Below are positions 4,881 to 6,362 of a DNA stretch of 64,000 nucleotides, piece by piece. The DNA is taken from NCBI RefSeq assembly GCF_051903065.1, contig NZ_CP178438.1. The stretch is one strand, 5' to 3'. The notes under the pieces are model-generated. The model saw only the letters and a list, made by a program, of their open reading frames with translations, was not told the origin of the DNA and searched no databases. Origin of the DNA: Escherichia coli. Its GTDB lineage: Bacteria > Pseudomonadota > Gammaproteobacteria > Enterobacterales > Enterobacteriaceae. A program made the position numbers and the translations under genes. Numbering within the stretch: the first letter of the stretch is position 1; each line of letters begins with the position of its first letter.

Positions 4881-4962
4881 AAAAACAACTAGTTATACAC
4901 TTTGTGGGAGCCTATTGGGAACCTGTTATTCTTAGAAAGCATCATTTGCTCATCACTTCAAT

Positions 4963-4991
4963 TGACCATGGTTAAAGCCAGCTATAAACTT
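4963..4991 (+). promoter_or_regulatory. candidate sigma70 promoter for the attL-proximal cargo cassette
   Basis: TTGACC (4963-4968), 17-bp spacer, TAAACT; a second TTGACA follows; the cassette has its own RBS (GAGG) before ATG 5117. Confidence 0.35.
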
Positions 4992-5116
4992 GACAAACGA
5001 GGTAACTGGTTGCTTAGGCCCAAGTGGGCACACCATAAGAAGCTCGTGTTGGTGATGAAGCAACCCATGAAGTATCGAGAATAATTATAAAGTTCACTAT
5101 CTTTGAGGTTTCTTAT

Positions 5117-5689
5117 ATGTTTTGCGAAGAAAAAGTAGCTCAAATGGCTGCATACCTACTTCTTAAGCGAGGTGGGCGCATGGCATATCTGAAATTGATG
5201 AAGTTGCTCTATCTGTCTAACCGCCAGTCGATTTTGAAGCATGGCAGGATGATCGGCGAAGATAGCCTTTACTCTATGAAATTTGGACCAGTCATGTCGA
5301 ATACGCTGAACTTGATTCGCGGTAAGGCTGAAGGCATTGGTGACTACTGGTACAACTTGATAGAGACGAACGGGCATAATGTATCGTTGCGTTCAGATCC
5401 GAGGGAAATGGATGCAGACGAGGTCTTTGATGAATTGAGTCGTGCAGATATCCGGATTTTAGATGAAATCTATTCTCGGTATGGGCATATGAACCGATTT
5501 GATCTCGCAAATATGACGCATTTAGAAAGCGTTTGTCCAGAGTGGCACGATCCTGGCAATTCTCGTAAGCCTATAGACCTGAAAGAAATGCTGATCAGTG
5601 AGGGTAAAAGCGAGGATGAGGCTAATCGCATAATTGGCAAAATGGAAGAATCTCAGAAACTTAAGGAATTTTCTTTGCAATTATCATGA
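5117..5689 (+). CDS. DUF4065 / Panacea-domain-like protein (SocA/PanA-like putative antitoxin or immunity component)
   Basis: 190 aa; N-terminal AAYLLLK..., KLMKLLYLSNRQ and FGPVM motifs resemble the recalled Panacea/DUF4065 signature; stop overlaps the next start (ATGA). Confidence 0.55.
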   Translation: MFCEEKVAQMAAYLLLKRGGRMAYLKLMKLLYLSNRQSILKHGRMIGEDSLYSMKFGPVMSNTLNLIRGKAEGIGDYWYNLIETNGHNVSLRSDPREMDADEVFDELSRADIRILDEIYSRYGHMNRFDLANMTHLESVCPEWHDPGNSRKPIDLKEMLISEGKSEDEANRIIGKMEESQKLKEFSLQLS

Positions 5690-6105
5690 CGGATTATCAG
5701 CCATACAGGAAAGGAACTGTGCTTGCCCCAACTGGGCCATGCAATCATCTTCATGTGATTTGTAATGATCCTGTTTATTACCCCGTTAACGATTGTTATT
5801 GTGTTTTAGTTGTTAATATTTCTAGTATCAAGGATGGTGTCCCCCACGATCCGTCTTGCGTCTTGAATTCTGGTGATCATCGCTTTATCAAGCATCCAAG
5901 TTATGTTGTTTACGCTGAAGCTATAATTTGGCGAGTGGATAACATGGTTAGAAAGCAGCGATCGGGTGAGATTTCTGTTCATGATGATATGCCAGAAGCT
6001 ACATTCAATAGAATTCTGGACGGTTTTGATATCTCTGATGAAGTTACGCCAAAGAACCTTAAATTTAAAAATAAATATTGCGTATCATCTATTGATGATG
6101 AGTAA
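5686..6105 (+). CDS. hypothetical Cys/His-rich protein, candidate toxin/effector partner of the DUF4065 protein
   Basis: 139 aa, translationally coupled to the upstream gene; no family recognised; clustered Cys/His (GPCNHLHVICNDP...CYC...). Confidence 0.5.
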   Translation: MTDYQPYRKGTVLAPTGPCNHLHVICNDPVYYPVNDCYCVLVVNISSIKDGVPHDPSCVLNSGDHRFIKHPSYVVYAEAIIWRVDNMVRKQRSGEISVHDDMPEATFNRILDGFDISDEVTPKNLKFKNKYCVSSIDDE

Positions 6106-6144
6106 ACAACAGGAATTGTTTCGGTATAACTTCAGGAGTTTTCT

Positions 6145-6318
6145 ATGGAAGATCAAAAAGCAACCAAGCCACAGGTTAAGTTCGACACAATGAAAGCATT
6201 CGCAGGTATGGGTGCTGCTGTTGAAGTTCTGATGAAGGCTGCTCCTAATGCGTTCACTCACGCTACTGTCTCTGGTAAAGAGCAGCAGGGTAAGCTTCGT
6301 CGTCGCAAAGCAGCATGA
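6145..6318 (+). CDS. small hypothetical protein (57 aa), not in the ORF track
   Basis: ATG 6145 preceded by AGGAG at 6134-6138; MEDQKATKPQVKFDTMKAFAGMGAAVEVLMKAAPNAFTHATVSGKEQQGKLRRRKAA; stop 6316-6318 then terminator. Confidence 0.5.
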   Translation: MEDQKATKPQVKFDTMKAFAGMGAAVEVLMKAAPNAFTHATVSGKEQQGKLRRRKAA

Positions 6319-6332
6319 TCATAGCTGGTGCT

Positions 6333-6362
6333 TTTTGAAAACCCGCCTTTAGGCGGGTTTTT
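6333..6362. terminator. bidirectional rho-independent terminator between convergent genes
   Basis: AAAACCCGCC-ttta-GGCGGGTTTTTT: GC-rich hairpin flanked by A-run and T-run. Confidence 0.8.

Follow-up and report, generated by a model that had tools for sequence, protein, structure and literature searches.

What kind of system is encoded by three short open reading frames (ORFs) that lie just inside the left end of a prophage of Escherichia coli? The question is raised by a stretch of 64,000 nucleotides (nt) of E. coli DNA (contig NZ_CP178438.1 of assembly GCF_051903065.1), referred to as the window. An earlier note on this DNA had described the ORFs as a self-contained three-gene cassette, in which an antitoxin-like first gene is coupled to a second gene of no recognised family, possibly a new effector. 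The best explanation arrived at in the current analysis, with a probability of about three in four, is that positions 5117-6105 encode a type II toxin-antitoxin module of two genes, PanA-PanT (PanAT) of toxin cluster T6, that serves as exchangeable cargo of a temperate phage integrating in dusA. The module adds a new, phage-borne example from E. coli to a known family and is not a new kind of system.

Gene 1 (panA; 5117-5689, plus strand) codes for a protein of 190 amino acids (aa), which is named 'Panacea domain-containing protein' in RefSeq. The DUF4065/Panacea assignment that had been proposed from motifs is borne out by a search with the profile hidden Markov model SocA_Panacea/DUF4065 of Pfam (PF13274), which matches residues 27-137 over model positions 1-109 of 113 with an E-value of 3.7e-19 (70.2 bits). 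The protein lacks an N-terminal domain, and its C-terminus is extended by some 50 residues, for which a helical structure is predicted. Its N-terminus, MFCEEKVAQ, resembles the N-terminus MIFSEQKVAQ of the PanA of Pseudomonas moraviensis. A protein cluster at 90% identity that contains the gene 1 product also includes the 128-aa product of gene 2 and a 232-aa N-terminally extended form; the gene 1 and gene 2 products, which are unrelated, appear to have been lumped together, possibly because of a gene call that was fused or read through.

The same Pfam domain is found in the antitoxin of the Caulobacter SocAB system, which is of type VI, and SocA is the founding Panacea protein. A SocAB-like system, in which PanA would not sequester the toxin but hand it over to ClpXP as a proteolytic adaptor, could be suggested on this basis and on a weak match of gene 1 to the NCBIfam SocA equivalog (E-value 0.022). 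The match, however, scores 14.4 bits against a cut-off of 190, so that gene 1 is not a SocA equivalog, the toxin of SocAB is unrelated to gene 2, and PanAT pairs including one of T6 form stable complexes typical of type II. Such a system is hardly credible at this locus. Direct binding is the likely mechanism here, in contrast to the ClpXP-mediated degradation of SocAB.

Gene 2 (panT; 5686-6105, plus strand) codes for 139 aa and overlaps gene 1 in the tetranucleotide ATGA. All three ORFs are annotated in RefSeq, where the start of gene 2 chosen by the Prokaryotic Genome Annotation Pipeline is the GTG at 5719, giving a product of 128 aa. An alignment of 35 homologs reveals an N-terminus, MTxYxPYRKGTVLAP, that is conserved in 34 homologs and requires the ATG at 5686; this ATG is therefore taken as the start and the ATGA overlap as real. 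The record of the phage SKA5 also annotates panT in the long form. An ATGA junction between panA and panT is present in 11 of 19 loci, including the E. coli reference locus (L001).

No family match to gene 2 has been obtained in Pfam, NCBIfam or PADLOC, and weak matches to DapC and ICMT in the library scans of genes 2 and 3 have been dismissed as noise. The identity of gene 2 emerges from the work of Kurata et al. (2022, PNAS, PMC8832971), who scanned the gene neighbourhoods of Panacea proteins and defined 88 toxin clusters, with cluster T6 annotated by HHpred as 'EndoA/PemK/MazF-family RNases'. A scan of species-representative genomes for the gene 2 family yielded 21 loci, three of which belong to strains listed under T6: L005 is 'Yersiniaceae bacterium 2016Iso4', now Chimaeribacter coloradensis (55% identity, PanA-PanT gap -1), L006 is Pantoea septica LMG 5345 (56% identity, gap -4) and L017 is Gluconacetobacter diazotrophicus PA1 5 (36% identity, gap +15). 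The gaps measured in these three loci between the stop of PanA and the start of PanT are identical to the records in Dataset S1 of that study. Homologs of gene 2 in Proteus, Salinivibrio socompensis and Photorhabdus likewise match T6 taxa. Because three of the homologous loci are from T6-listed strains and have identical junction gaps, gene 2 is assigned to the T6 PanT proteins, an already catalogued family, and the suggestion of a new effector is not sustained.

The T6 pairs described by Kurata et al. share with the E. coli pair a stand-alone Panacea antitoxin without N-terminal domain, the order of antitoxin followed by toxin with an overlap of -4 or -1, and a toxin of some 135 aa for which a MazF/PemK-like fold is predicted. 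The E. coli rows in the examined part of their dataset belong to T1 and T3, and the E. coli prophage copy is not among them. The T6 member validated in that study comes from P. moraviensis and is flagged 'NotPhage', whereas the E. coli copy is phage-borne. The P. moraviensis toxin is toxic in E. coli and is rescued by its own PanA, the two proteins have been recovered as a complex in a pull-down, and the toxin specifically blocks the incorporation of 35S-methionine and not of thymidine or uridine (PMC8832971).

A search for gene 2 relatives returned 3,298 representatives at 50% identity with E-values of 1e-3 or below, 1,646 of which have E-values of 1e-10 or below. The toxin family is very large, yet no Pfam or NCBIfam model covers it, and its members are annotated as 'hypothetical', often with a truncated start. 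Several T6 PanT proteins of Pasteurellaceae (Histophilus, Haemophilus and Pasteurella; T6 rows of Dataset S1) are named 'terminase' in RefSeq, which is probably a misannotation from phage context.

The association of the two genes is strict. Counting only loci that extend far enough upstream, all 18 independent loci, and the E. coli reference locus besides, have a PanA homolog immediately 5' of the gene 2 homolog. These pairs, with gaps of -4 to +27 nt, are distributed over many genera in two proteobacterial classes, from Enterobacterales to Alphaproteobacteria. Comparison of genes 1 and 2 with their orthologs in Kosakonia and Pluralibacter gives proportions of non-synonymous differences (pN) of 0.05-0.11 and of synonymous differences (pS) of 0.76-0.81, the latter saturated, and a pN/pS ratio of about 0.06-0.14; these values indicate that panA and panT are real genes under strong purifying selection. 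The pair is intact in 205 of the 207 E. coli genomes that carry it. A PanT homolog in two overlapping pieces in different frames, beside an intact-looking PanA, has been observed in the methanotrophic gill symbiont of Bathymodiolus platifrons (L022), which may represent a decayed toxin gene with the antitoxin kept.

The possible complex of the two proteins has been modelled with AlphaFold2 as a fusion of PanA, a 25-residue Gly/Ser linker and PanT, using a locus-paired alignment of 16 pairs. The model has a predicted template modelling score (pTM) of 0.84 over 354 residues despite the disordered linker, and residues 138-190 of PanA, which include a long helix at 166-190, have predicted local distance difference test values of 86-95. 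The model is consistent with a defined PanA-PanT complex. Stand-alone Panacea antitoxins are described by Ernits et al. (2023, PMC10440598) as neutralising their toxins directly, and in other PanAs the C-terminal helices can suffice. When the fused model was compared with the Protein Data Bank (PDB) by Foldseek, the matches were to MazF only and concerned the PanT half; nothing convincing was retrieved for the PanA half, and no solved Panacea structure resembling PanA was found.

The product of gene 2 is predicted to adopt an SH3-like barrel of the MazF/Kid/CcdB type with additional C-terminal helices. As this type also includes CcdB, gene 2 could be read as a CcdB-like gyrase poison, or a toxin with some other target, instead of a MazF-like RNase. 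This is quite improbable, given that the block exerted by the validated T6 toxin was specific to protein synthesis and that the structural scores for MazF and Kid are higher than those for CcdB.

In the broad alignment of PanT proteins, which reaches to Alphaproteobacteria, the residues H21, L22, H23, C26, P29, D55, C58, H65, S72, Y76, G113 and S117 are invariant, and D28 and H70 are near-invariant. MazF is without the set H21/H23/C26/D55/C58/H65, and a His-based or metal-assisted active site in PanT is possible. The MazEF and Kis-Kid (PemIK) systems differ from the pair also in the absence of detectable sequence similarity to PanT, in the extra C-terminal helices of the latter, and in the antitoxin, which is an AbrB/MazE-type DNA-binding protein in MazEF and a Panacea protein here. 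An antitoxin that is not of the AbrB/MazE type does not account for autoregulation.

Gene 3 (6145-6318, plus strand) codes for 57 aa and belongs to the family phrog_2741 (PHROG E-value 8e-36), which is confined to few E. coli phages of the same type and has no function on record. No meaningful match to it has been found in Pfam, NCBIfam or PADLOC. Its 57-codon frame is kept in 14 of the 15 sequence variants read, the remaining one having 58 codons; there are 0-1 synonymous and 0-1 non-synonymous codon changes, too little divergence for coding selection to be gauged. That gene 3 is a functional part of a self-contained three-gene system, with gene 2 as a previously unknown effector, might be argued from the single promoter and single terminator that flank the three ORFs, the gap of only 39 nt between genes 2 and 3, the strong ribosome-binding site of gene 3 and the lack of a Pfam, NCBIfam or PADLOC family for gene 2.

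The distribution of gene 3 speaks otherwise. Gene 3 and the excisionase gene xis are found in 549 complete E. coli genomes and the PanA-PanT pair in about 205 (about 4% of complete genomes); about 345 E. coli genomes, like the phage mEp460, have gene 3 but not the pair. It is missing from all 18 PanAT loci outside E. coli, and in the closest of these, from Kosakonia and Pluralibacter, PanT leads straight into the terminator and xis. Pairwise comparison places the left edge of a cargo swap at 4923/4924 and its right edge at 6131/6132, in the gap that separates genes 2 and 3 and just 5' of the ribosome-binding site of gene 3; prophages with other cargo are homologous up to 4923 and again from 6132. 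Since gene 3 is found without the pair, is absent from its closest relatives and lies beyond the cargo edge, it is placed, as judged from these comparisons, in the phage backbone, evolutionarily independent and outside the toxin-antitoxin module. With gene 2 in T6 as well, the three-gene system is very improbable, and the two-gene module PanA-PanT is preferred.

The exchangeable cargo so delimited (4924-6131, plus strand) comprises the promoter, panA and panT and is absent from prophages with alternative cargo. It starts about 60 nt inside attL, in a slot between attL and xis. The alternative prophages have in its place a segment of 803 bp with a single unrelated ORF of 177 aa, which fills the slot 5' of gene 3 in O157:H7, strain SOI121 and the phage mEp460. 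This alternative protein (WP_000956557.1), which occupies the slot in about 345 E. coli genomes, is encoded at 2781-3314 of L025 (E. coli O157:H7 BB24-1), and in mEp460 as gp23 (L023:2784-3317). It has no match in Pfam or PADLOC.

The position just inside the left prophage end, opposite to the early operon, is confirmed by the dusA remnant that ends at about 4862 and by the convergent xis. Host DNA in the window runs in the order lexA, dinF, yjbJ, zur, a DUF2713 gene and the truncated 5' end of dusA. The host dusA 5' remnant on the attL side (4753-4881, plus strand) is recognised by a match to the N-terminus of DusA in translation followed by divergence, and is annotated in RefSeq as a partial tRNA-dihydrouridine synthase; the prophage junction falls at about 4862/4863. 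A second, phage-borne copy of the dusA 5' end is located at 43165-43271, with 83% identity to 4756-4862. It is fused to the remainder of dusA, so that the gene is restored at the other end, and is adjoined by a tyrosine integrase gene. Because of this second copy beside the integrase gene, a prophage of about 38.4 kb is recognised in the 5' end of dusA, spanning about 4863-43271. The same arrangement is described by Farrugia et al. (2015, PMC4482086) for elements with dusA-specific integrases.

The segment 4863-4923 (no strand assigned) is prophage backbone next to the attachment site, common to prophages with different cargo, as seen from homology to L025, L026 and mEp460 as far as 4923. It terminates with ATTGGGAACC (4914-4923), which marks precisely where the cargo swap begins on the left and occurs a second time at 43115-43125, in the interval from int to the phage-borne 5' end of dusA. 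The sequence ATTGGGAACC is also kept upstream of panA in Kosakonia and Pluralibacter and may be a boundary of recombination or an arm-type site for the integrase. On the other side of the cassette lies xis (6366-6647, minus strand), a convergent PrtN-family excisionase gene that is annotated in RefSeq, is the first gene of the early-left operon and has a homolog in mEp460 annotated as excisionase.

Phages that carry the cassette have been recovered by induction. SKA5, an induced phage of 37.6 kb, matches the cassette with 99.9% identity, and its circular map runs int, attP/dusA', gene 1, gene 2, gene 3, xis. In SKA5 and in the induced phage Lys8385Vzw, both recovered from E. coli strains, the pair is placed between int/attP and xis.

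Kosakonia sp. S29 (L002) and a Pluralibacter metagenome-assembled genome (L003) have the same att-proximal segment, promoter, terminator and PrtN-type xis, and their PanAT proteins share 82-87% amino-acid identity with the E. coli pair. The att-proximal segment, promoter, PanAT, terminator and xis being shared, the same phage lineage and slot are represented outside Escherichia.

Elsewhere the T6 pairs are found in other surroundings. The pair of Serratia follows the antiterminator Q gene and precedes a DNA methyltransferase, that of Pantoea adjoins a CI-type repressor, that of Enterobacter adjoins an insertion sequence element, and those of Chimaeribacter and Raoultella are close to tail genes. 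The neighbourhoods of gene 2 homologs are not consistently structural phage modules, such as would have spoken against the defence or toxin-antitoxin module proposed earlier; judged by these neighbourhoods, T6 pairs occupy varied prophage accessory slots and behave as moron or defence cargo and not as a structural gene. The description of gene 1 as translationally coupled to a conserved partner, and of the pair as toxin-antitoxin-like cargo at a prophage end, is upheld. The arrangement recalls moron and defence hotspots at prophage ends, which have the same variable cargo slot between att and xis; here neither cargo matches a PADLOC system.

A type II architecture on an excisable mobile element, adjoining int, attP and xis and with no match to known defence systems, would also suit an addiction or stabilisation module that kills cells which lose or excise the prophage, and has nothing to do with anti-phage defence. 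Unrelated cargo, however, occupies the same slot in most related prophages, and the pair moves among prophage slots, a pattern typical of moron or defence cargo. Addiction as the sole function is possible, if somewhat unlikely, and the two roles are compatible. For the PanAT cargo a phage-defending or prophage-stabilising role is plausible.

Signals for expression of the cassette were located where they had been placed before, as were the three ORFs and the ATGA overlap. A candidate sigma-70 promoter, TTGACC-17-TAAACT, has been identified by a consensus scan at 4962-4990 on the plus strand. The consensus match alone is not above chance, with 4 sites found and 5.7 expected. Both hexamers, still 17 nt apart, are kept at the loci of Kosakonia and Pluralibacter, where the spacer and the leader of 120 nt have diverged, and this conservation amid diverged sequence supports a real promoter. 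The leader shows no unusual RNA fold (z = -0.2) and no conserved palindrome was found in it. The palindrome TTGACCATGGTTAA, which lies across the -35 hexamer, was considered as a regulatory element and rejected, as it is not kept in the relatives.

The ribosome-binding site of gene 1 is GAGG (5105-5108), 8 nt ahead of the ATG, and that of gene 3 is AGGAG (6134-6138), 6 nt ahead of the ATG. A strong intrinsic terminator (6337-6362, plus strand), with an 11-bp stem of which 6 pairs are G-C and a T-run, separates the cassette from xis and belongs to the stretch of conserved backbone beginning at 6132. An Rfam scan of 4400-6800 and a tRNA scan of 4000-7000 gave sub-threshold matches to the terminator hairpin only.

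From these features the following mode of action is proposed. The module's own promoter would drive panA and then panT, with translational coupling through the ATGA overlap, and transcription probably continues through the backbone gene 3 to the terminator, so that gene 3 is probably co-transcribed with panA-panT. PanT, a 139-aa protein with a MazF-like SH3 barrel, would arrest growth by inhibition of translation, by analogy with the validated T6 member, and is most likely an RNase, as predicted from its fold. PanA would bind PanT directly and neutralise it. Because PanA lacks a separate N-terminal domain for neutralisation or DNA binding, the contact should come from the Panacea core, the helical C-terminal extension or both. 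The role is most plausibly superinfection exclusion by abortive infection, or prophage stabilisation. For the E. coli copy we infer toxicity and neutralisation, the RNase chemistry and the biological role.

Several points weigh against a functional T6 module of this kind. The pTM of the fused model is indirect evidence of a complex and, without a contact map or predicted aligned error, defines no interface. The relation of gene 2 to MazF is one of predicted fold, and no sequence method shows the link: there is no match to the Pfam family MazF/PemK (PF02452), the gene 2 family profile found no MazF among PDB sequences, and hhalign of the family against the verified E. coli MazF gave a probability of 0.2. 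The invariant His/Cys/Asp residues of PanT appear to differ from the canonical MazF catalytic set, to which R29 and T52 of E. coli MazF belong, on account of which the RNase activity of PanT is a prediction. The validated P. moraviensis PanT (WP_083201923.1) is not among the matches listed in the searches for gene 2 homologs, one of which was seeded with the 'HLHF' subgroup, and its link to gene 2 is by shared cluster membership and not by direct alignment. With regard to defence, the three cassette proteins have no defence-family match in PADLOC-DB v2 at E-values up to 1, and in the literature we found no published phage challenge of T6 or any PanAT pair and no report of the E. coli cassette itself tested against phages.

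A further point concerns toxicity. As 8 of the 25 PanT candidates tested by Kurata et al. (PMC8832971) showed no toxicity in E. coli, one of them from an E. coli prophage pair of cluster T1, gene 2 might not be a functional toxin in E. coli and the pair might be inert or non-toxic in action. The strong purifying selection on both genes, the near-universal intactness of the pair in E. coli genomes, the strict pairing with PanA in a very large family and the validated toxicity of one T6 member speak against it, and we consider it improbable.

A bolder proposal, which is doubtful at present, takes the invariant residues at face value. In it the T6 PanT would not be a MazF-type mRNA interferase; H21/H23/C26/D55/C58/H65, possibly metal-bound, would attack another target on a MazF scaffold, and the Panacea domain of PanA would sense an incoming phage and release PanT. 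The pair would then constitute an uncatalogued prophage abortive-infection system in native E. coli.

The value of identifying the PanA-PanT module at this locus is practical rather than conceptual, as it provides a T6-type PanAT pair native to E. coli together with its native phages. The attL-proximal slot holds two alternative cargos, and the one with the 177-aa ORF is wholly uncharacterised. The points of remaining interest are the His/Cys/Asp set on a MazF scaffold, a defence role in the native host and the alternative cargo. The native E. coli pair makes it possible to test what triggers a Panacea system, whether it defends against phages, and what a T6 toxin of MazF fold cleaves or modifies.

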